A stretch of 64,000 bases of DNA, from assembly GCF_963921235.1 (NCBI RefSeq), contig NC_086108.1, positions 58,840,001 to 58,904,000 on the forward strand. Reading direction: 5' to 3'. The notes under the pieces are model-generated. The model saw only the letters and a program-made list of their open reading frames with translations. It was not told where the DNA came from and ran no database searches. How positions within the stretch are numbered: the first letter of the stretch is position 1; each line of letters begins with the position of its first letter. The translations under genes and the position numbers were made by a program. The DNA comes from Mobula hypostoma. Lineage: Eukaryota. Positions 831 to 31,230 of this stretch are shown here, piece after piece.

Positions 831-1696
831 TTTACTTTCATTCTGGTGGAGCTGGATAACTACTAGGAAATAATGTATTGTTTTCTCTATCATGTTACAG
901 GTAAAAATATGACTGGAGTCTTAGTTAAACTTTCTGCAGGCTTCTGCTACCCTCAGAATAACTTTATAAAGAGTCAAATGACTTTAAGCTAAACTTTGAT
1001 CTAGTGTATAATGTGGTCATTACTAAATTCGTAGTTCTGTTTGAGATACTACTTAGTGCCACCTCAGACACAAACTTATTCATTGTTGTGCTTTGTCATT
1101 GTCTCCTACCTTAACTGTATGAACACTTATTTAATTAGTTCTGATGTGAAAGTCACAGAATAGTGTTTTATTTCTGTTAATTCTGCTCTCAAACTAATTG
1201 CTAAAGTAACAAGAGCAGAGTAGACCAGGATTTCAAGAGGCAACAGATGGCATGATAGAAATAGAAATAGATGATCAATGTGGCAGACAGTATGTTGAAT
1301 TGGGATCTCAAATTCAATTTAGGCTTTAGAATGAATAAGTTTCGTGTGCTTCAATCTAGTTCCTCATGTGCACAGAGAAGAATAGGAAACTGGCATGAAG
1401 AGTTCAGAATTTGTGGTAGTGACTAAGAAAAATAGCCTTAGTTGGAGAAAATTGTGACTCACTATAATTGGACATCTGAACAAACTTCTGCCCAGTACTT
1501 GTCAATTGCATTGCCCTAATTTATTGTTCATAATGGGGATATGACATAGAGTTGCTGCTTTGATGTAGTCAGCATTTTCTATGTAAATTGAAAATAGCAC
1601 CATCTTTTCAAATTGACTTAATAGTTCAAATCCCAGCTTAAACTCATTTGCATAAATTCAAATATAAAATTGGCCAGGAAACAATACAATGAAGTG

Positions 1697-2515
1697 CAGC
1701 ACATGCACAGTGCTGGAAGAACTCAGCAGGTCAGGTAGGAATAAACAGTTGACGTTTCGGGTAGTGACCTTTCTTCAGGACTGGAAGGGAAGGGGGAAGA
1801 TGCCGGAATAAAAAAGGTGGGGGAGTGGAAGGATGACTAACTAGAAGGTGATAGATGAAGCCATGGGTGGGAAAGATGAGGGGCTGAAGAAGAAGGAATC
1901 TGATAGGACAGGAGAATGTGGTTGTTACTACATAGGAGAATGAGAAGAAGGAGGGGCACTGGGGGAGGTGATAGGCAGGTGAGGAGAAGCGCTAAGTGGC
2001 CAGAGTGGGGAATAGAAGAAGAGGGAAGGGGGAGGAAAAAATTACCAGAAGGAGAAATAGATGTTCATGCCTTCAGGTTGGAGGTTACCGAGATGTAATA
2101 TGAGCTGTTGCTTCTCCACCAAGAATGCCCTCATCATGGCAGTAGAGGAAGCCATGGACTAACATGTTGGAACAGGAATGGATATAGGAATTAAAATGGT
2201 GGACAAATGGGAAATTCCACTTTCTGTATATGGAACAGAAGTGCTTGACAAAGCAGTCCTTCAATTTACATCAGGTCTCGCTAATGTAGAGGAGGATGCA
2301 TCAGGAACACCGGATACAACAGACGATTCCAACAGGTTCACAGGTGAAGTGTTGGCTCATGTGGAAGGAATGTTTAGGGGTCTGAATGGAGGCAATGGAG
2401 GAGGTGAATGGGTGGATGCAGCATTTTAGTCACCTGCAGAGATATGTGCCAGGTGGGAGATGAATAGGGAGCGATGAACGGACAAGGGAATCACAGAGGG
2501 AGCAATCCCTGTAGA
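1697..2515 (-). mobile_element. Penelope-like element, 3' fragment (GIY-YIG endonuclease region and terminal repeat)
   Basis: Minus strand reads decayed PGTY.C..KCC..PFTSS...SFH..QHFTCE..G.VCCIRCS.C..LYI.ET; purine-rich tract; hammerhead core at 1745-1784. Confidence 0.8.
1745..1784 (-). ncRNA. Minimal type I hammerhead ribozyme motif (Penelope-associated)
   Basis: Minus strand: ccagtc-CTGAAGA-aaggtcactaccc-GAAA-CGTC-aactgt; conserved core intact, one mismatch closing stem I. Confidence 0.6.
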
Positions 2516-2524
2516 AAGCAGCAA

Positions 2525-2990
2525 GTGTAGTTGCTGTAATTCCTGTCCACTGTCTCCTCATTTTTCCATTTGAGTCAAAGATCATCAAGCTGCAGCTCCT
2601 GTTCCTTAATATGTTCGCTCAGGAGTTGCAGTTTGGTGCACCTGGCGCAGATGTACAGAGGTCTCCCAGACTTCCCACATCCCACTCAAAGTGCAAAAGA
2701 CTGCCCCTAGAGCCATTCTCACTAAACTACTATGCCGTAACAGAGGAGGAATGAGCCAATAAGAACAGAGAGAGAGAGTAACCTACAAGTTACTTTACCT
2801 CACCCAAGCCTGAAGAGCTAAAGCCACTCTGAAGACTGATACACTCAAACGAATGGCTGCTCTGGTTGCACTTGAGCTATTTTTTATTGGCCCTTTCTAA
2901 CGAATTTCTCTTCCTGATTGGTCGCTCCTCAACTCAGAGAATCTGCATGTAACTCTGCCTTTAAAATCTCGGTTGCCATCCTGATTAAAA
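2525..2990 (-). mobile_element. CR1 LINE 5' fragment (5' UTR and ORF1 zinc-finger region)
   Basis: Minus strand reads C..MWEVWETSV..ICARCTKLQLLSEHIKEQELQLDDL, typical of the CR1 ORF1 N-terminus. Confidence 0.65.
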
Positions 2991-3879
2991 GGTGGCTCTT
3001 TTCATGCAGTCCTGACGTTGATTGTCCAGCCGTTTTTAACTCTGTCTATCAAAAGGAATTGTGGACAATCCTTTTCCAATTTGCCTTCACTCCATTTTAC
3101 ATCAGCTGTATAATGGTATGCGAGCTGTGATTTTAGTAAGTACACAACTGATCTAATGGAAGTTAGGTCAAGTAAGGCTATAGGATTTTTCCACATCTTT
3201 CTCAATCTTTTTTGCTGCAATATTGCCCCTCGTTTCAAACCAGCTTCCTACGGGAATGGAACTAATTTACAGGTCAAATGGGAGACTCTAGAACTTATGG
3301 CACCTCTACACCAGAACCAAGGTGATTCTGACTTCAGATATTGAACTCCTTATAAGTGCACATTGACGGCCAAGCTCCACATCTTTGACATCTCATTGAC
3401 TGAGGGAAATGAATGAATATCTTAAAATTTGAAGTTAAATTGATAAAATCAATATTGAAGGGTGCAGCATGTCTAAATCAGGGAGACTAAATGCAGAGAA
3501 GGTGACTGCTTTGTAGAGTCCCTGCGTTCAGTTGGCAAGGGTGATGCTGAGCTTCCCATCACCTGTCACCTTAATTCTTCATTTTGTTCATCCCACTCTG
3601 ACCTGTCTCCCTGCACCTCCTACACTGTTCCAAAAAAGGCAGACGTAAACTTGAGGAAAAACACTTCACCAGCCATCCAGCTATGTTGTACATCAGAATA
3701 GATAAAGAGTATCTGGGGTGGCACTGAGAACCTTTGTCAGCAGCATGCAGAAGCTCACTACAAATGGTGGAAGGAGCAAGCATATCACAAACTACCTAGG
3801 GGCTACCCCATCCAGCATTTCCTGCCCCTACTTTGCCAAGTCTGCTGGTCCCACGTGAAGGAAACCAGAGGGCCTTGTC

Positions 3880-4141
3880 AAAGGATCAGAGGTAGAGAGA
3901 GCCAGCAATTTAAAATTCCTTAGGGTTATCATTTCTGAGGACCTCCTGGGCACAGCACGTAAGTACCTTCCATGAGGAAGAAGGTACAGGATTCTTAGGA
4001 CTCACAAACAGTTATTTACCCCTGAACCATCACAATCTTGAACTAAAGTAGATAATTTCACTCAACTAACTTGCCCCATCATTGAAATGTTCCCACAACC
4101 TATGGACTCAGTTTCAGGGTCTCTTCATATCACATTCTCAA

Positions 4142-4173
<32 letters not shown>

Positions 4174-4362
4174 GTGTTTGCACAGTTTGTTGTCTTTTGC
4201 ACACTGGTTGAACACCCAGCTTGGCACTGTCTTTCATTGATTCTGATATGGTTGTTATTCTATGGATTTATTGAGTATTCCTGCAAGAAAATGAATCTCA
4301 GGGTTGGATATGGTGACGTATATGTACTTTGATTATAAATTTACTTTGAACTTTGAACTTTG
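3880..4362 (+). mobile_element. Rex1/Babar-type LINE 3' fragment, internally deleted
   Basis: GSEVERASNLKFLG..ISEDL motif; UTR closely similar to 46750-47066; (ctttgaa)n tail. Confidence 0.75.
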
Positions 4363-4429
4363 TGGTCACCAAATCTGAGGGACTATCTAGGAAGAAGGAC
4401 CAGAGATAAAGCCTTAGTATAAAATGGCC

Positions 4430-5800
4430 CATGTATTTCAACAGTTACCTTATCTAAACTTCAGGCTGTCTCCTTTCATGTGGAGACTCCATTCCATTCT
4501 CCCAATTTCTCGGTCTTTCTCACAGTTCATACCTGTCCTGAGGTTGACAATATTAGCAATAAATAGCAATATTTCTGATGTCTTCATACTTCTGGGTATA
4601 CTCCTCCACTAGTAATACCCTTTCCATATCCTACATTACTGCTCTCATCTCTCCCCTTTCTCTTAAAACCAACAATAGGCTTCCCTTGTCTTCACTTTCT
4701 ACCCAAACCATTTCACCAGTCTGCATATTTAACATATAATGCTCCAGCATTTGTGGTTCTTCCAGCATGATGCTTCAGCAAATGTGTTTTCTCCTCCCCT
4801 CCCCATCCAGCATTCTAAAGGATCATTACTTGCACAAATTTTTATTGCAATATTCAGTCACTTCCAAAATTTCCTCCTTTTCTTGGCACATACAACTAAT
4901 AGGAGAAGATGCAACACCTGCCCCTTCACCTCTCATTTCTGTCTCAAGGTATCCACCACTTTTCAAAAGTGATATACATACCTATGCAATCTCCTCCAAA
5001 CTGCAGAGAGCAAATTTAAGTTGCTGAAAAGCTCTGTTCAGCCTCTAAAACATTACATTGAGTGAGTGAGGGCCTCTGTTGGTTAGAGTTGACCATGGAT
5101 ATTGTGTCCTAGCTGTCTGGATATGCAAGCCAGGGCAGTATGATGTGGAGAACAAGCTGTTGCCCATGTAGCAAGGTCCCCCTCTCCATGCAACTGATGA
5201 ACACAAAGGAATGGCACAGGCTGATACAGTTTGGTACCAGCAGCATTGCATTGAACTCAACGTAGGACTGCCTTAGGGACTCCAACTCCAGATTTTTCCC
5301 TCAGAGCTTACTCCCAAAACCTTCCCCGTGAGTGAGTATAGCCATAAGGCAGCGGATGTTTGAGATCAGAGTTTTCCTTCTCCTAGTTGAGCTGCCAACC
5401 ACGACTGACCATTCCCATCTGCCCAAAGTGACTGGTTTTAAGGTGCCAGTAACCCACCTTTGCCCCTTTGTCAGTGGAAACCGTTCCGCCGGCCTTAGTA
5501 GCTAAGCCGCACGTGAAGGCTAGGAGCTTGACTTGGTTGTCAGAGGCTATTTGAGCCGCATGCCATTGGGGGCATTTAATAGGTAGTGAGAGCTTGTCCC
5601 CATTACCACCCCTGGCTATAACAATCTTAAAGCACGTTAAGCTCTCGGTTACTTAATACTTTAATGTCCTACTTTAATCCCATAATAAACTCTTTAACTT
5701 CAGGCTTCTTTGTCTCAAATGCTTGGATAATGGCCTGTATTTTGACTCGATACATTACAGACTTATGGACTCAGCATTGAATTCAGTAATTTCAAGTAAG
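4430..5800 (+). mobile_element. Old Penelope-like remnant interrupted by the RTE-type element at 5060-5630
   Basis: Decayed SI..SQF, LVFTF.P, L.HD...F.PP and RRRCNTCPFTS motifs, matching the region present at 2100-2500. Confidence 0.55.
5060..5630 (-). mobile_element. Non-autonomous RTE-clade (AviRTE-like) element
   Basis: Reverse complement of 23247-23672; contains gatcagagttttccttctcctag, recalled from RTE 5' UTRs; gagt-repeat tail at the left end. Confidence 0.7.
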
Positions 5801-7149: not shown

Positions 7150-7257
7150 AGTCCTTCGTTTTCACTCCTGCAACCACCATAGAGGAGGCCTCAGAAACTA
7201 AGATTGTTTTCACAGCCACAAGTCTCACCTGCCAAGTAGATTGTGAGGAAAGATGTT
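7150..7257 (+). mobile_element. Isolated copy of Gypsy pol 3' end
   Basis: Aligns with 10845-10947 (ctgcaacc.ccat.gaggagg...ttgttttcac.gc..aagtctcacctgccaag...ggaaagatgt). Confidence 0.6.
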
Positions 7258-8353
7258 TTAAATGAACTGGAGGTGGCTACCTATCTGCTGAACTCACGGA
7301 CTTCTTCATCAAGTTATGGTATTGTTACACTGTTTGTAACTATATGTTATAATTATGTGGTTTTGTCAGTTTTTTCAGTCTTGATTTGTCCTGTGTTTTG
7401 TGATATCACAGCGGAGGAAATAATGTATCATTTCTTAATGCATGCATTACTAAATGACAATAAAAGAGGACTACGTGTCTTCATAATCATCATAAATTAG
7501 CCCAATCCTTGCCTGTGGTCCCAACACTCAGGCTTTCCAGACTATCTGTACCGCCATTTAAATTGTCCAAGTACCGGGTGGTGCCTTGCTCTAGAACTTG
7601 GACCCAGCATAGCGATACACTAGGGCCATCCAGCTTAAAGCCATTCTCAATCTCACCCAATCAGTTTAGAGCTTGGAGCAATCCAACCTCACACCCAGGT
7701 TAGGTGGATGGACATTGAAACTCTTCCGCTTCGACTCCTCTCCAAATCATTCATACCAACTGTGACAGTGATACCAACTCTGTCTGTGACTCCGTCTTGA
7801 ACACATTGCACTTCAGCTTTGCGATGCACCCACATGGCCCATCCTTCCAATCAGCTTCGCCTCCGCTTGTTTCATCAGTGTTTGCAGTGATAGTTTACCA
7901 CAATTTACTTCAACAAAAGTGTTATTGGTAATGTTTTCAGTTGAATTCCTTCCCTTTTGAACTACTAGTGAGCTGTCACACATGTTCAGTTGCGCCATCT
8001 TAAATTGGAAGATTTAATGCATTTTCAGTTTGGTAATTGGCTTAATGATGCACTGAGAGATTGCTTAGTTTGTAGAATCTTACAAAAACACTCAAAAAAG
8101 GCTCCTAGCTGAAGCACAACCTACATTTAAAAGAACCATTGAAACAGCTGTATCAATGGAAACCGCAGACAGAGATGCAATTGAGTTGTAGTCAGGAATG
8201 AAAATCTATATGAGCAAAATTGCAACGTCTAAACAACCTGGCGTGGCCGAACAAATTGTGTTACCATTGTGGCATGGGCTCACGTACACCAGATCAATGC
8301 AGATTTAAAGGTGAAGCTTACAGAAGATGCAACAAAGTAGGACACATACAAAG

Positions 8354-9582
8354 TGTCATGGCCCGGTCCGTGAAATCCGCATTCCGATTCACGGTCCGGT
8401 CCATGTTCCTTATTCCAGGTTTTCCAGTTTTCCCCAGTTTCTGTTGAGGCAGCTGATTCTCATTTGTGCTGGCCTCATAAATAGCTTCAGGATTCAGCCT
8501 CTGGCTGCTGGATTGTTCCTGTTCAAACCCCCTGTCTGAATCCCTTCTCTGCCCCTGCCTCCTGAAGCCTCGCCTGTAACCCTCACCTGCATTGCTGTCA
8601 AGTTCCATTGCTGGAGCAAGATAAGGACTGTCTATTGTTGCTTTGAACTGTCTCTGTATCTATGCCTTTACTAGATGGGTCTGGCCGCTTGCCGCTACCT
8701 AGTGTTTGGATCTGTCTCTGTGTCCACACCTTTGATAGGTAGGTCTGGCTATTTGCTGCTACCTTGTGTTGAGAACTGTCTCTCTGTGTTCTGTGTATGA
8801 GTCCCGACCCCATGTCCTGCTCCCTAGGAGGGGTCCTGACTCTGTGTAGAGCCCTGGCCCCAAGTCCTGTTCCCAAGGAGTGGTCCCTGTCTCCCCCTCG
8901 ACCAAGGCTCTGCATCCCTGTCTCTGCCTCGACCAAGGCTCTGCGTCCCTGTCTCCCCCTCAACTAAGTCAAGGCTTCGGGGTCTTGTCCAGTCCTAGCC
9001 ACGTCCAAAAACCTTGTCCTGTCCAAGCCATGGCTTTGTGTTCCTGTCTTGTCCATGTGTCTCGCCCAGCCCAGGAATACTTTGCCCAGCCCGGTGCTGG
9101 GGTTCCCTTGTCCTGTCCAGGAGTTTCACATCCAGTCCTGTTGCCTCTCCTCGTCCTGTAGCCACGTCTTGTCCTTGCCTAGTTCTGGAGTCCGAGTCCG
9201 AGTCAAGCTCCTGGTTCTGGGTCTTTGCCCAGTCTCTGGCTCGGAGTCTATACCCAAGCCTCGAGGAATCCAAGCCCCGTCATGTCCTCACCTCGAGGAA
9301 CCCAAGCCCCATCATGCCCTCACCTAGATCCAGGGTCTGAGCCTGAGTCAAGACCCAGGTTTCGGGTCCTTGTCCAGTCTCTGACTCGGAGTCCTTGTCC
9401 AGGTTCTAAGTTCCTAGTTCCTCGTCTAGGTCCCGCTTTCCTAGTCAAGTCTTTGCCCAAATCTGTGTTCTTGTCCCAGCTCCTAGTCTGCATCCAGTCC
9501 CGTCCCTAACTCAAGTCCAGTTCCCAGTACTTCAGTGTCTGTGTCTTGCATTTGGGTCCGCTCCCAGCACCCCCTTATGACA
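8354..9582 (+). mobile_element. Solo LTR (Gypsy-type) inserted in gag
   Basis: TGTCAT...ATGACA termini; perfect 5-bp TSD caaag (8349-8353, 9583-9587); TATA-like cataaatag near 8476; gcatttgggtcc U5-like end; internal degenerate tandem repeats. Confidence 0.9.
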
Positions 9583-10245
9583 CAAAGAGCATGTTGAGCA
9601 GCCAGAGATAAATGGACTAAAATAAATGGACTGAATGAATGAAAATAAAATGACTAAAAGTAAATGGACTGCACAGAGAAGAGAAAAACATAAAAAGTCA
9701 TTTTGTGGTTTCAAAAAGAGCATGAATCTGCATGCTGTTGGTGAAAAATCTGATAATGATGAGAGTGATACTGGACTGCCTTGAGAATTACCGTGTGAAA
9801 ATTAATAATAGACCAGCAACATGGCTTACACCAGAAGTAAATGGCAAATTAATTAAAATGGAATTGGACACTGTCTTGGCTGTTTCAATCATTCCACCAA
9901 ATTAGTTTGAAAGGCATTTCAAAAGTACTGAACTGTACCCTACAGATATCAGCTGAGAACTTGTACTGGAGAGAAGATAACTCCTGTGGGAATGATGTTT
10001 ATAACAGTGAGATAAAGCAATCAACAAGACACATTGAGCTTTTATATTGTAAAAACAGGAGGATCAGCATTGTGGGGACATTAGTGGCTGAGATAGCTAT
10101 AACTTGGTTGAAGATTCATTCACCATCTGCATGCTATATCCCTGCAACACAGTCAAATAAAAGTGAACTAAGAAAGTTACTGGATGGTGCCATATCTGTC
10201 TCTATGCTGTACTCCATGCACTGTTGGCCAACAAAGGGCAAAAGG

Positions 10246-10802
10246 GTGTTGGTGCCAACCTCTATGCCTCTGGTTGGAAAGCATATTGGACCAAGGAAGG
10301 ACATGCTGCTCAGAGGAATCATGAGAGTGATGTAAGCTGTGGTCCAACCACAACAGTTTTTGTATGCAGCATGTCTGAGAAAGCTTCTGATATGTTAATG
10401 AGGCAGATACTTGTGAAACGTGGCTTGGTTTTAAGATGGAAGGGAGTTCAAGGAGCTTCAAGAGGGTTGCAAGTCTTTGGCTTTTGTGAGTAAAAAGAAC
10501 CAAACCTACTCTGTGTGCATTAAGGTTATCTCATGAACTTCAAGTGGGAGACAAAGAGTGCTTGTAAAAATAGATGCAAAGACCAAAGCCCAGCTGGATG
10601 AATGGAAAACTAAGAAGAAAGGAGTCAATGGAGATATGAAAATAGAGGATTTGTCAGATGACGTTATAGGTGAGGAAACCAAGAGGAGAGATGAGAACTT
10701 AAAGGGAGTAACAGAAGGATTAATAAGAGAACGCTCCACTGAACTAAATGGACCTATCCAAGATGCACAAACTAGAAGAAGAAAAATGAAGGAGAAGAAG
10801 GG
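10246..10802 (+). pseudogene. RBM25: Processed (intronless) partial pseudogene of RNA-binding motif protein 25, RRM region
   Basis: Across frameshifts reads VLVPTSMPLVGKHIGPRKD / CGPTTTVFVCSMSEKASDMLMRQILVKRGLVLRWKGVQGAS.GLQVFGFCE*KEP / LVKIDAKTKAQLDEWKTKKK..EETKRRDE..KG..EGLIRE.S.ELN, matching the vertebrate RBM25 N-terminal RRM as recalled; contiguous with no introns; stop at 10491-10493. Confidence 0.92.
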
Positions 10803-11114
10803 TGTCCAGAGCGGTCAGAACCAGTTCCTGCAGTCTCAGTGTCAACTTCTGCAACCGCCATGGAGGAGGTTCCAGAACCCAATATTGTTTTCACTGCAAG
10901 AAGTCTCACCTGCCAAGCGGAGTGACCTCCCTCCTCAGGAAAGATGTAATCCTATCATTGGCTACTGTTATGTTTTGTTACTACAAAACCTAACAACTAT
11001 CACCACACAAACATGACTTTGTTGCTCAATATAACAATACCTCAGAAAGAACTTTGCTAAATTTCTTGGTTCAATGGTATTGATTTTGTTATTGCCACAT
11101 GTACCTAGATACAG

Positions 11115-27984: not shown

Positions 27985-30900
27985 GTTCGAAGTTCAAAGC
28001 AATAACAATAATAAATAAACAAACAAACAAACAAACAAACAATAAATTTGAGAACATGAGATGAAGAATCCTTGAAAGTGAGTCCATAGGTTGTGGAAAC
28101 AGTTCAGTGGTGGGGCAAGTTAAGTTGAATGAAGATATCCCAATTTAGTTCAAGGGTCTGATGGTTGAGGGGTAATAACTGTTCCCAAACCTGGTGGTGT
28201 AGATCCTGAGGTTCCTGTACCTTCCTCCTGATGGCAGCAGTGAGAAGAGAGCATGGTCGTCATGGTGAGGTTCCTTGATGGTGGACGTTGCTTTCCTATG
28301 ACAGGGCTCTGTGTAGATGTGCTCAATTGTGGGGAGGGCTTTATCTGTGATGCACTGGGTCGTATCCATTACTTTTTGTAGACTTTTCCATTCAAAGGCA
28401 TTGGTTTTTGCATACCAGGCCGTGATGCAACCAGTCAATATATCCTCCAATACACATCCATAGAAGTTATTTAAAGTTTTAGATGGCACGCTGAAACTTT
28501 GAAAACTTCTGGGAAAGTAAGGGGTGCTGCTGTGCTTTCTTTGTAATGAACCTAGGACAGAATCTGTGAAATGATAACACTGATGAATTTAAAGTTGCTG
28601 ACCTTCTCCATCTGTGATTTCTCTATGAGAGTTGGCTCTGGTTTCCTCCTCCTGAAGTTAATAATCAGTTCCTTGGTCTTGCTGACATTGAACAAGAAGT
28701 CGTTGTTGTGACACCACTCAGCCAGATTTTCATTCTCCTTCCAACTTCACGCAGTATGTGAGCTGTACAACCAGAGGGGAGAGGACTCTGGATCTGATGT
28801 ACGCCAACATTAAGGATGCATACAGCTTCTCTCCCCTCCCCCCCCCCCCCCCCCCCCCCCCGGGAAGGTCAGATCACAACCTGGTGCATCTAAAACCCTG
28901 CTACATGCCTCTGGTGAAGAGTAAACCTGCAACCTCGAGGACAGTGAGAAAATGGTTGGAGGAGGCTTATGAGGTGCTCCAGGGTTGTTTTGAGGTGACA
29001 GACTGGCAGGCACTCTGTGAGCCACATGGAGAGGATATTGATGGGCTCACAGAGTGCATCACTGATTACATCAATTTCTGTGTGGACTGCAATGTTCCGA
29101 CAAGAACTGTCTTTTGTTATTCAAATAACAAGCCATGGGTGACTAAGGACATTAAGGACATCCTGAACGCTAAAAAGAGGGCGTTTAGAGATGGAAATAG
29201 GGAGGAGCTGAGGGCAATACAGAGTGACCTGAAAGCCAGGATCAGGGAGGCTAAAGACAGGTACAGGAGGAAGCTTGAGTGGAAACTCCAGCAGATCAAC
29301 ATGAGAGAGGTCTGGAGGGGGATGAGGACCATCACTGGGTTCAGGCAAACTAGCAATAGAGGAGCTGAAGGCAGTGTGGACAGGGCCAATGAACTTAACC
29401 TGTTCTTTAACAGATTTGACAGTGTGGCCCCTGCCCATCCCACACATGAGCCATCTGTTGTCGGCCCCCAACCAACACATTCCACTCTCCCCTCCTACCC
29501 CTGCTCACAGTCCCCCACCCTGCTCTGATGACTATACCACTTCCCCACACGAAACCACCATGGTGGGCTTCACAGCTCTACAAGTGAGAAGACAACTGAA
29601 ACGTCTTAACCCAAGCAAGGCTGCAGGACCGGATGGTGTCAGTACCAGGGTGCTCAAAGCCTGTGCCCCTCAGCTATGTGGACTACTTCGCCATGTACTC
29701 AACCTGAGCCTGAGGCTCCGGAGGGTTCCTGTATTGCGGAAGACGTCCTGCCTCGTCCCTGTGCCGAAGACGCCGCGCCCCAGCGGCCTCAATGACTACA
29801 GACCGGTGGCATTGACCTCCCACATCATGAAGACCTTGGAGAGACTTGTTCTGGAGCTGCTCCGGCCTATGGTCAGGCCACACTTAGATCCCCTCCATTT
29901 CGCCCACCAGCCCCGACTAGGAGTTGAGGACGCCATCGTCTTCCTGCTGAACCGTGTCTACGCCCACCTGGACAAGCCAGTGAGCACTGTGAGGGTCATG
30001 TTTTTTGACTTCTCCAGTGCGTTCAACACCATCCGCCCTGCTCTGCTGGGGGAGAAGCTGACAGCGATGCAGGTGGATACTTCCCTGGTATCATGGATTC
30101 TTGATTACCTGACTGGCAGACCACAGTACGTGTGCTTGTAACACTGTGTGTCCGACAGAGTGATCAGCAGCACTGGGGCTCCAAAGGGGACCGTCTTTTC
30201 TCCCTTTCTCTTCACCATTTACACCTCAGACTTCAACTACTGCACAGAGTCTTGTCATCTTCAGAAGTTTTTGGATGACTCTGCCATAGTTGGATGCATC
30301 AGCAGGGGAGATGAGACTGAGAACAGGGCTACGGTAGGAAACTTTGTCACATGGTGTGAGCAGAATTATCTGCAGCTTAATGTGAAAAAGACTAAGGAGC
30401 TGGTGATGGACCTGAGGAGAGCTAAGGTACCAGTGACCCCTGTTTCCATCCAGAGGGTCAGTGTGGACATGGTGGAGGATTACAAATACCTGGGGATATG
30501 AATTGACAATAAACTGAACTGGTCAAAGAACACTGAGGCTGTCTACAAGAAGGGCCAGAGCCGTCTCTATCTCCTGAGGAGACTGAGGTCCTTTAACATC
30601 TGTCGGATGATGCTGAGGATGTTCTACGAGTCTGTGGTGGCCAGTGTGATCATGTTTGCTGTTGTGTGCTGGGGCAGCAGGCTGAGGGTGGCAGACACCA
30701 ACAGAATCAACAAACTCATTTGTAAGGCCAGTGATGATGTGGGGATGGAACTGGACTCTCTCACGGTGGTGTCTGAAAAGAGGATGCTGTCTAAGTTGCA
30801 TGCCATCTTGGTCAATGTCTCCCATCCACTACACAATGTACTGGGTGGGCACAGGAGTACATTCAGCCAGAGACTCATTCCACCGAGATGCAGCACTGAG

Positions 30901-31230
30901 CGTCATAGGAAGTCATTCCTGCCTGTGGCCATCAAACTTTACAACTCTTCCCTTGGAGGGTCAGACATCCTGAGCCAATAGGCTGGTCCTGGACTTATTT
31001 CATAATTTACTAGCATAATTTACATATTACTATGTAACTATTTATGGTTCTATTACTATTTGTTATTTATGGAGCAACTGTAACAAAAACCAATTCCCCC
31101 CGGGATTAATAAAGTATGACTATGACTATGACTATATGCTGATTCATCACCAACTTTGGTTCTGCCAACAATAGTGTCACCAGCAAATTTAAATATGGGA
31201 TTGGAGTTGTTTGGAGGTGAGGAGGCTGAG
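27985..31230 (-). mobile_element. Rex1/Babar-type LINE 3' portion, split by the insertion at 28741-31135
   Basis: ORF 28145..28489(-) LTGCITAWY..LQKVMDT..LLPSGGRYRNL; RT part (FKFAGDTIV) resumes at 31136-31230. Confidence 0.8.
28741..31135 (+). mobile_element. Young 5'-truncated Rex1/Babar LINE (end of APE, RT, 3' UTR)
   Basis: TRGERTLDL, GRSDH, KAAGPDG, DYRPVALTSHIMKTLERL, FFDFSSAFNTI, GAPKG, QKFLDD, YKYLG; one frameshift near 29500, stops at 30139 and 30499; (tatgac)n tail. Confidence 0.95.

Follow-up and report, generated by a model that had tools for sequence, protein, structure and literature searches.

Organization of the locus

The window, i.e., the whole 64,000-nucleotide stretch analyzed here (C50:58,840,001-58,904,000 of the 3.48-Gb genome searched, that of a cartilaginous fish, probably a ray), contains on its forward strand a decayed Gypsy retrotransposon in which an intronless piece of RBM25 lies between the protease region and the C-terminal tail of pol. 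Its parts are the following (exon numbers are our own labels; exon identities are to the parent gene):

7164..7257, + strand: separate short piece of the same pol tail, 81% identical to 10845-10924
8019..8353, + strand: C-terminal half of gag (tblastn to P0093 aa 98-211, 58-65%)
8354..9582 (1,229 nt), no strand assigned: later insert of another family, TGTCA...TGACA, splitting gag
9656..10187, + strand: frameshifted segment with the end of gag, a linker, the aspartic protease, and the linker between protease and RT (P0093 aa 222-372)
10188..10194, + strand: 5' switch point with 7-nt microhomology, TGCCATA in this copy
10188-10197, + strand: last 10 nt of RBM25 exon 3, 8/10 identical
10198-10245, + strand: RBM25 exon E3b (48 nt), 40/48 identical
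10246-10415, + strand: RBM25 exon 4, 153/170 identical
10416-10473, + strand: RBM25 exon 5, 50/58 identical
10474-10632, + strand: RBM25 exon 6, 138/159 identical
10633-10764, + strand: part of RBM25 exon 7, 108/132 identical
10765..10791, + strand: seam where nested internal deletions have joined exon 7 to the start of exon 9 and then to exon 10
10792..10800, + strand: 3' switch point with the 9-nt microhomology GAGAAGAAA, whose last base differs in this copy
10801..10954, + strand: pol C-terminal tail, 74-80% identical to pol-bearing and chimeric copies

The first-pass annotation had placed gag and protease upstream of the RBM25 piece and a pol tail directly after it, and both placements hold: 8019-8353 and 9656-10187 match the fish protein P0093, and the tail occupies 10801-10954. 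The 9656..10187 segment is 74-81% identical to pol-bearing copies of the family; the homologous stretch of copy L169 matches the Pfam RVP domain. The 1,229-nt insert is flanked by the 5-bp duplication CAAAG (8349-8353 and 9583-9587), resembles three other loci (L172, L174, and L005) at 70-79%, and is absent from other family copies, in which the joints run from 8353 directly to 9656. The isolated piece at 7164..7257 is 79-91% identical to other copies.

Homology to the family ends at 8019 and 10954, and both LTRs are gone from the window copy. The element 5' end with the 5' LTR is missing, other copies reaching about 600 nt further 5', and the 3' UTR, purine tract, and 3' LTR have been lost, others running about 425 nt further. 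A family devoid of LTRs and ending at 8019 and 10954 was rejected because the other copies are longer. The window copy is a secondary insertion that was later cut at both ends and interrupted.

The RBM25 cargo and its parent gene

At the protein level, positions 10302-10490 gave one match, to an opossum RBM25-like protein (E 2.8e-13), and the C-terminal part of the opossum protein located the parent gene on the minus strand of C1 at approximately 99.79-99.84 Mb. A Pfam PWI search found exons that do not belong to RBM25 and that we take, from their sequence, to be SRRM1- and PRPF3-like. The captured piece (10188-10800) is intronless, and 497 of its 577 aligned bases (86%) agree with the spliced parent exons. 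Five parent introns of 1.7-5.8 kb are precisely absent from the window copy, each with GT-AG borders in the parent, whose GT-AG introns span 1.1-6.1 kb; an intron-bearing parent had been anticipated, and every spanned junction bears this out. The 10246-10802 interval previously given for the fragment was right in describing an intronless piece but began too late, as the homology starts at 10188 and 10246 is the start of exon 4. Exon E3b, which lies in between, is absent from the opossum protein (P0001) and present in a shark protein (P0002).

The stretch from exon 4 to the retained part of exon 7 (10246..10764) comprises the whole RRM, with three 1-nt gaps and one stop. The window pieces alone gave no significant match against Pfam or PDB; the cargo of another copy (L037) matches Pfam RRM_1 (E 1.5e-8). 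Exons 4-7 are joined in 20/20 extended copies, 16 of which also have E3b, and the longest copies (L159 and L126) span parent positions 41-1112, i.e., 1,072 nt from which eight introns have been lost. As first annotated, neither poly(A) nor a target duplication flanks the mRNA piece in the window copy. Similarly, poly(A), 3' UTR, and PWI exons were found in none of 63 aligned copies.

Junctions and deletion series

At the 5' junction, the heptamer TGCCACA is common to pol-bearing copies and RBM25 exon 3, and the chimera crosses from one to the other there, at a single 5' junction common to the chimeric copies. The codon frame is identical in pol and RBM25 at this point and is in frame with gag-pro. 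At the 3' junction, the 9-nt GAGAAGAAA is common to RBM25 exon 10 and the pol tail, whose reading frames differ; a microhomology in this purine-rich stretch had been suspected. The microhomologies are exact matches of 7 nt and 9 nt, and the 9-nt one sits in a purine-rich stretch, a setting in which sequences often match by chance.

The 3' side of the cargo is more complex than the initial reading allowed. An internal mRNA fragment was correctly recognized, but its 3' end is not a simple cut in exon 7, since 10765-10800 joins exon 7, the start of exon 9, and exon 10. Exons 8-10 are kept in longer copies (L159/L171, L126, L113, and L103). The cargo first captured was thus the larger one, of 1,072 nt with eight introns lost, and it was later shortened by nested deletions located in purine-rich RE/RD repeats. 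Among 30 loci picked by the junction motif, nine were without the tail; the 21 with the tail in view comprise 13 of the short type seen in the window (about 610 nt), five of a middle type (about 600-750 nt) keeping part of exon 9, and three other forms. The chimera is an amplified family whose ancestor held more of RBM25, a fact that escaped the first annotation and that makes the window locus a secondary insertion, not the capture event. A fusion of gag-pro to the RRM had been proposed from an ORF at 9907-10335. This ORF is no proof, as it lies mostly off the protease frame; the in-frame fusion itself is shown by the junction comparison and by open stretches in which the protease reads into RBM25 in five copies (L046, L037, L044, L045, and L049).

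Pol-bearing relatives and classification

The pol-bearing copies carry about 2.5 kb encoding RT, RNaseH, and integrase in the slot where the chimera has RBM25, as expected if, as originally proposed, host mRNA had replaced these domains. They are colinear with P0093, a fish "K02A2.6" single-frame Gypsy polyprotein whose region aa ~400-1133 matches pol-bearing copies only and not the chimeric ones. Pfam matches to RVP, RT_RNaseH, Integrase_H2C2, and rve follow the protease-RT-RNaseH-integrase order of Ty3/Gypsy elements; RVT_1 found no match in two short fragments. Three pol-bearing loci (L167, L170, and L163) carry both gag-pro and the pol tail, confirming that tail and upstream part come from one family. 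In a gag-pro tree of 57 sequences, the full-cargo copy branches inside the main pol-bearing clade (support 0.96) and the middle deletion type forms a clade (0.96), the remainder being star-like, with support for few other groupings. None of the helpers found is intact, every pol-bearing copy examined being decayed, so that mobilization in trans cannot be watched.

Mag-lineage Gypsy elements are described, in the available text of one report, as having short LTRs, a tRNA-Ser or -Leu primer site, and a 5-bp target duplication (PMC3286476). Judged from the P0093 match, LTR length, primer site, and 5-bp duplication, the family is probably K02A2.6/Mag-like. It shares with such elements short LTRs, a tRNA-Ser primer site, the 5-bp duplication, and a single gag-pol frame, whereas in the chimera RT-RNaseH-integrase is replaced by host exons.

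Size and mobility of the family

An exact 18-mer over the chimeric 5' junction occurs 247 times in the genome; the pol-type counterpart occurs 618 times and the reversed controls 0 times, giving a chimeric share of exact junction matches of 247/865 (about 29%). At each of 30 motif loci retrieved, the sequence runs on into RBM25. Among 55 copies picked by similarity, seven have the chimeric motif intact, and extrapolation from this fraction gives approximately 1,900 copies (95% range 1,000-4,700), an estimate that leans low because these 55 are the least decayed. In addition, a query covering 10200-10960 matched 40 places (41 rows) over most of its length at 79-84%, 40 of its 3,535 candidates having been scored, and an independent cargo-only query gave 2,873 candidates, 40 of them scored. 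RBM25 is present at 12/29 loci picked by protease alone and at 7/29 picked by the pol tail (9/29 counting L103 and L111).

Other copies have paired TG...CA LTRs of about 245 nt and a purine tract, and at 4/4 loci checked their primer site is complementary to the 3' end of tRNA-Ser(GCT). Both outer ends were called in 12 copies, and in nine of these the 5-bp flanks agree at four or five of five bases (four exact, five at 4/5, two at 3/5, and one none), as read by eye with a 1-base shift of the LTR start allowed. The chimera therefore moved as a non-autonomous element, with its own LTRs, tRNA-Ser primer site, and 5-bp duplications. Uninterrupted chimeric copies measure 2.8-3.0 kb, the full-cargo form about 3.3 kb, and pol-bearing copies about 4.7-4.8 kb. 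The features of a non-autonomous LTR element are found in the dispersed copies, not in the window copy, which has lost both ends. Contigs at about 80% identity, from four runs that we guessed to be RNA, cover the family, a few of them bridging junctions of other copies, and were not counted as evidence of expression. The predicted protein P0085 is a mixed gene model containing such RBM25-element sequence.

Age, spread, and selection

The 63 distinct copies differ by 12.5% from the parent and by 16.4% from each other, and seven LTR pairs have diverged by 13-28%. The exact window locus is present in organism B at 1-2% divergence, with contigs bridging position 8019 and the 5' junction. In organism D the 3' truncation is bridged at 6.6%, organism C has pieces at 5-7%, and organism I yielded no long near-identical piece. 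A Hypanus sabinus protein starts with the identical protease-RBM25 junction; because its transposase part finds nothing above 46% among 107 scored places in the source genome, a second species carries this junction.

The present copies decay neutrally, and no selection on the RRM is seen. Indeed, cargo allele frequencies in the 63 copies are similar for synonymous, replacement, and stop changes, both for transitions (0.048, 0.052, and 0.050) and for transversions (0.016, 0.017, and 0.014). An intact frame under purifying selection, as in a functional retrogene, is not what the cargo presents, given its three gaps and a stop in the window copy and its neutral allele pattern; about 90 of more than 1,000 copies were examined for these properties. 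No intact gag-pro-RRM protein was present among 91 + 1 hits or among the best 150 of 3,099. Pairwise pN/pS values of 0.60-0.74 are no proof of selection, since 0.74 is also the value for the cargo, which is decaying neutrally.

Common variants per 100 nt number 8.8 (gag N), 6.1, and 3.9 (protease) along the element and 0.5 in the cargo, and 50/89 element variants are polymorphic among chimeric as well as pol-bearing copies. This pattern suggests that a cassette of single origin recombined with helpers of several backgrounds, although decayed CpG sites may contribute to it.

Origin and amplification of the chimera

Our results indicate that the element is very probably a Gypsy retrotransposon that acquired spliced RBM25 in place of RT, RNaseH, and integrase through template jumps onto the mRNA and then spread in trans. 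RBM25 mRNA would have been packaged together with element RNA. Minus-strand synthesis would then have crossed from the element to the mRNA at the 3' microhomology, proceeded along about 1.07 kb of it, and returned to the element at the 5' microhomology. The double template switch proposed at the outset is in this way supported by intron loss and both microhomologies while still being a reconstruction. The product would retain LTRs, primer site, purine tract, and gag-protease, with RT and integrase presumably supplied by pol-bearing relatives, and its cargo would shrink during the spread. The shortness of the chimera (2.8-3.3 kb vs about 4.7-4.8 kb), with packaging signals and gag-protease kept, may have conferred a replication advantage, and gag-pro may have been exchanged with helper RNAs. 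The RRM itself is most likely a passenger.

A LINE-made RBM25 retrocopy that landed in a Gypsy element and later lost both of its ends, along with pol, by deletion seems highly improbable. LINE-like repeats, judged by their motifs, are abundant in the window, but this route requires two extra deletions, each ending on an mRNA-pol microhomology. Moreover, the longest copies stop at one identical exon 10 point, and the 63 aligned copies are devoid of the 3' parts of the mRNA mentioned above. An independent LINE insertion had been doubted from the beginning, in agreement with the other chimeric copies, which have their own LTRs and 5-bp duplications and no LINE hallmarks. It is also improbable, though less so, that the captured RRM was useful to the element, e.g., in RNA binding within the particle or in splicing or export of its RNA. 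All deletion classes retain the RRM in full and have lost RE/RD repeats, but such repeats are easily deleted. Cargo alleles at a frequency of at least 50% comprise 21 synonymous and 6 replacement differences from the parent, a ratio that a host gene evolving under constraint would by itself be expected to produce. Of the six replacements, two are at CpG sites, two are on the seam, one equals the shark P0002 residue, and one is a subfamily variant. Shared cargo variants (8 synonymous to 17 nonsynonymous, odds ratio 0.98) and the lack of a junction-spanning protein both among the 150 best representatives (of 3,099) and in a search with a single hit also argue against a useful RRM.

A further possibility, toward which we remain reserved, is that a translated product drove the amplification, the whole gag-protease in frame with the cargo forming its own particles in cis and taking RT and integrase from helpers. 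This would refine the template-jump origin proposed above, with which it shares the same beginning, and would not replace it. The in-frame 5' junction and the five copies in which the protease stays open into RBM25 are consistent with it, and the mouse IAP 1-delta-1 element offers a precedent in the available text of its report (PMC6466679). The seam length of the short type is a multiple of three in 26/35 cases, but the seam lies within AGA repeats, which slip by threes. Common gag variants of the chimeric copies (30 synonymous to 41 nonsynonymous, odds ratio 1.85, p 0.017) also point in this direction; however, 50/71 also occur in pol-bearing copies, so that recombination with helpers may have introduced them, the chimera-only variants (8 to 13) give p 0.29, and the protease region has no synonymous enrichment.

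In addition, SUDS3 is carried by a different Gypsy family, fused in the same protease-RT linker. The SUDS3 search gave 119 matches among 150 scored; K02A2.6-like gag-pro lies upstream at 20/20 loci, and at 17/20 the protease homology and the Sds3 match are read in one frame. That this element belongs to the RBM25-bearing family was rejected, as DNA matches among 20 loci were 0 to L170 and one, element-internal, to L167. Two independent amplified captures at one spot and in frame are the main support, hinting rather than conclusive as two cases are few, for a recurring class; that both should be in frame has a 1-in-9 chance. We tentatively propose that rays harbor a recurring helper-dependent Gypsy class that retains all of Gag and protease and has a spliced host mRNA, in frame at the protease-RT linker, in place of what follows, and that the hundred- to thousand-fold amplification of such elements stems from the translated Gag-protease-cargo polyprotein working in cis. 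If true, animals would have an LTR-based analogue of the Pack elements that carry genes, and its architecture would be a selected one.

Comparison with known systems

The mechanism is already known from LTR-mediated retrocopies (Tan et al., 2016) and from Bs1; the scale is unreported in the literature found. No account of an RBM25-Gypsy family was found there, with subscription papers and repeat libraries, in which it may sit unrecognized, lying outside the search. A vertebrate retrocopy survey leaves RBM25 unnamed in its main text and filtered repeat-masked candidates (PMC13320880, available text). In rays, such copies will add spurious entries to RBM25-like gene calls and raise the number of retrocopies counted, and they could putatively be a source of small RNAs against RBM25, an essential splicing gene. 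Specialists would not expect such a scale, so complete a record, or the recurrence of the in-frame architecture, and the factors that decide chimera amplification (length, frame, and Gag in cis) become testable.

LTR-mediated retrocopies are described, in the available text, as partial mRNAs within a discontinuous LTR element, with microsimilarity, no poly(A), and secondary retroposition, and as single or few-copy cases (5 of 7 in zebrafish, 8 in mouse, and 3 in human; Tan et al., 2016, PMC5131818). The RBM25 chimera agrees in its precisely lost introns, one LTR family on both sides, microsimilarity, and lack of poly(A) or duplication, but, compared with the retrocopies described there, one capture gave rise to an estimated 1,000-4,700 copies with their own deletion subfamilies. 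Gene capture in plants has been reviewed (PMC13317346), and maize Bs1 is, according to the available text, a non-autonomous LTR element with exons captured from three donor genes, 1-5 copies, and a reported translated product (PMC5131818, PMC13317346). Both are non-autonomous LTR elements with captured exons, and in each the switch points are common to all copies. In contrast to Bs1 as so described, the RBM25 family has one donor, orders of magnitude more copies, and neutral decay. A captured host mRNA can thus reach thousands of copies, far above the 1-5 of Bs1.

The gag-pol fusion of mouse IAP 1-delta-1 acts in cis, as established by experiment (PMC6466679, available text). Like the RBM25 chimera, IAP 1-delta-1 is internally deleted and non-autonomous with an in-frame fusion ORF, and it rivals its helper. 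It holds no host mRNA, whereas the RBM25 family does and has a putative cis role.

Acutely transforming retroviruses depend on helpers and have host sequence, already spliced, joined in frame to the gag side of their genome. The RBM25 chimera is built likewise, but it differs from them in having no visible env and no sign of selection on its cargo. It represents a complete fossil record of retrovirus-style capture in a vertebrate germ line, with donor, helper, both switch points, full-length founder form, and deletion descendants.

Variation among the RBM25-Gypsy copies

The C-terminal end of Gypsy pol (the pol tail) carries a 1-base insertion, corresponding to window 10882-10891, in 20 of the 30 scored chimeric copies of the short type (cargo of ~610 nt), and this insertion restores the frame of the RBM25 cargo to that of the pol tail. 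In two other loci, L104 and L118, inspection by eye indicates that the integrase zinc-finger region is apparently fused directly to the pol tail (oriented positions ~1450-1510); they appear to represent a further, cargo-free internal-deletion type of this Gypsy family. The chimeric copies L018/L022 and L144/L145 form pairs whose members are more than 97% alike and lie on the same contigs, and both pairs are likely segmental duplicates.

Insertions and repeats around the window copy

The gag region of the window copy is split at 8354-9582 by a 1,229-nt TGTCA...TGACA element, which is flanked by a 5-bp duplication and contains short tandem repeats. This insert is likely a solo LTR or a small non-autonomous element of a family other than the RBM25-carrying Gypsy, and it is also found within three other copies of the latter (L172, L174, and L005). 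A second, isolated piece of the same pol tail lies at 7164-7257, upstream of the truncated element by 760 nt. The ~200-nt repeat at 7293-7490, with copies in many of the fetched loci (identity up to 97%), looks young, and a ~620-nt repeat at 30513-31135 shows 94% identity to an insert within L163.

Related fusions and the parent gene

A second Gypsy family (L217-L236) carries SUDS3 as an in-frame fusion located in the protease-RT linker, with Sds3 matches numbering 119 of 150 scored, out of 331 candidates. In a Hypanus sabinus gene model (P0085), the protease-RBM25 junction is joined to a GTF2IRD2-like transposase; the M. hypostoma genome holds more than 100 long open frames of transposases related to this part (8,251 candidates).

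The parent RBM25 locus (L061) includes a 48-nt exon, E3b (G000:C1:99832586-99832633), which is present in ray RBM25 and in that of the shark Heptranchias (P0002) and missing from the opossum (P0001) and Polyodon (P0050) proteins. Ray RBM25 also lacks ~17 residues that the opossum protein has after exon 7.
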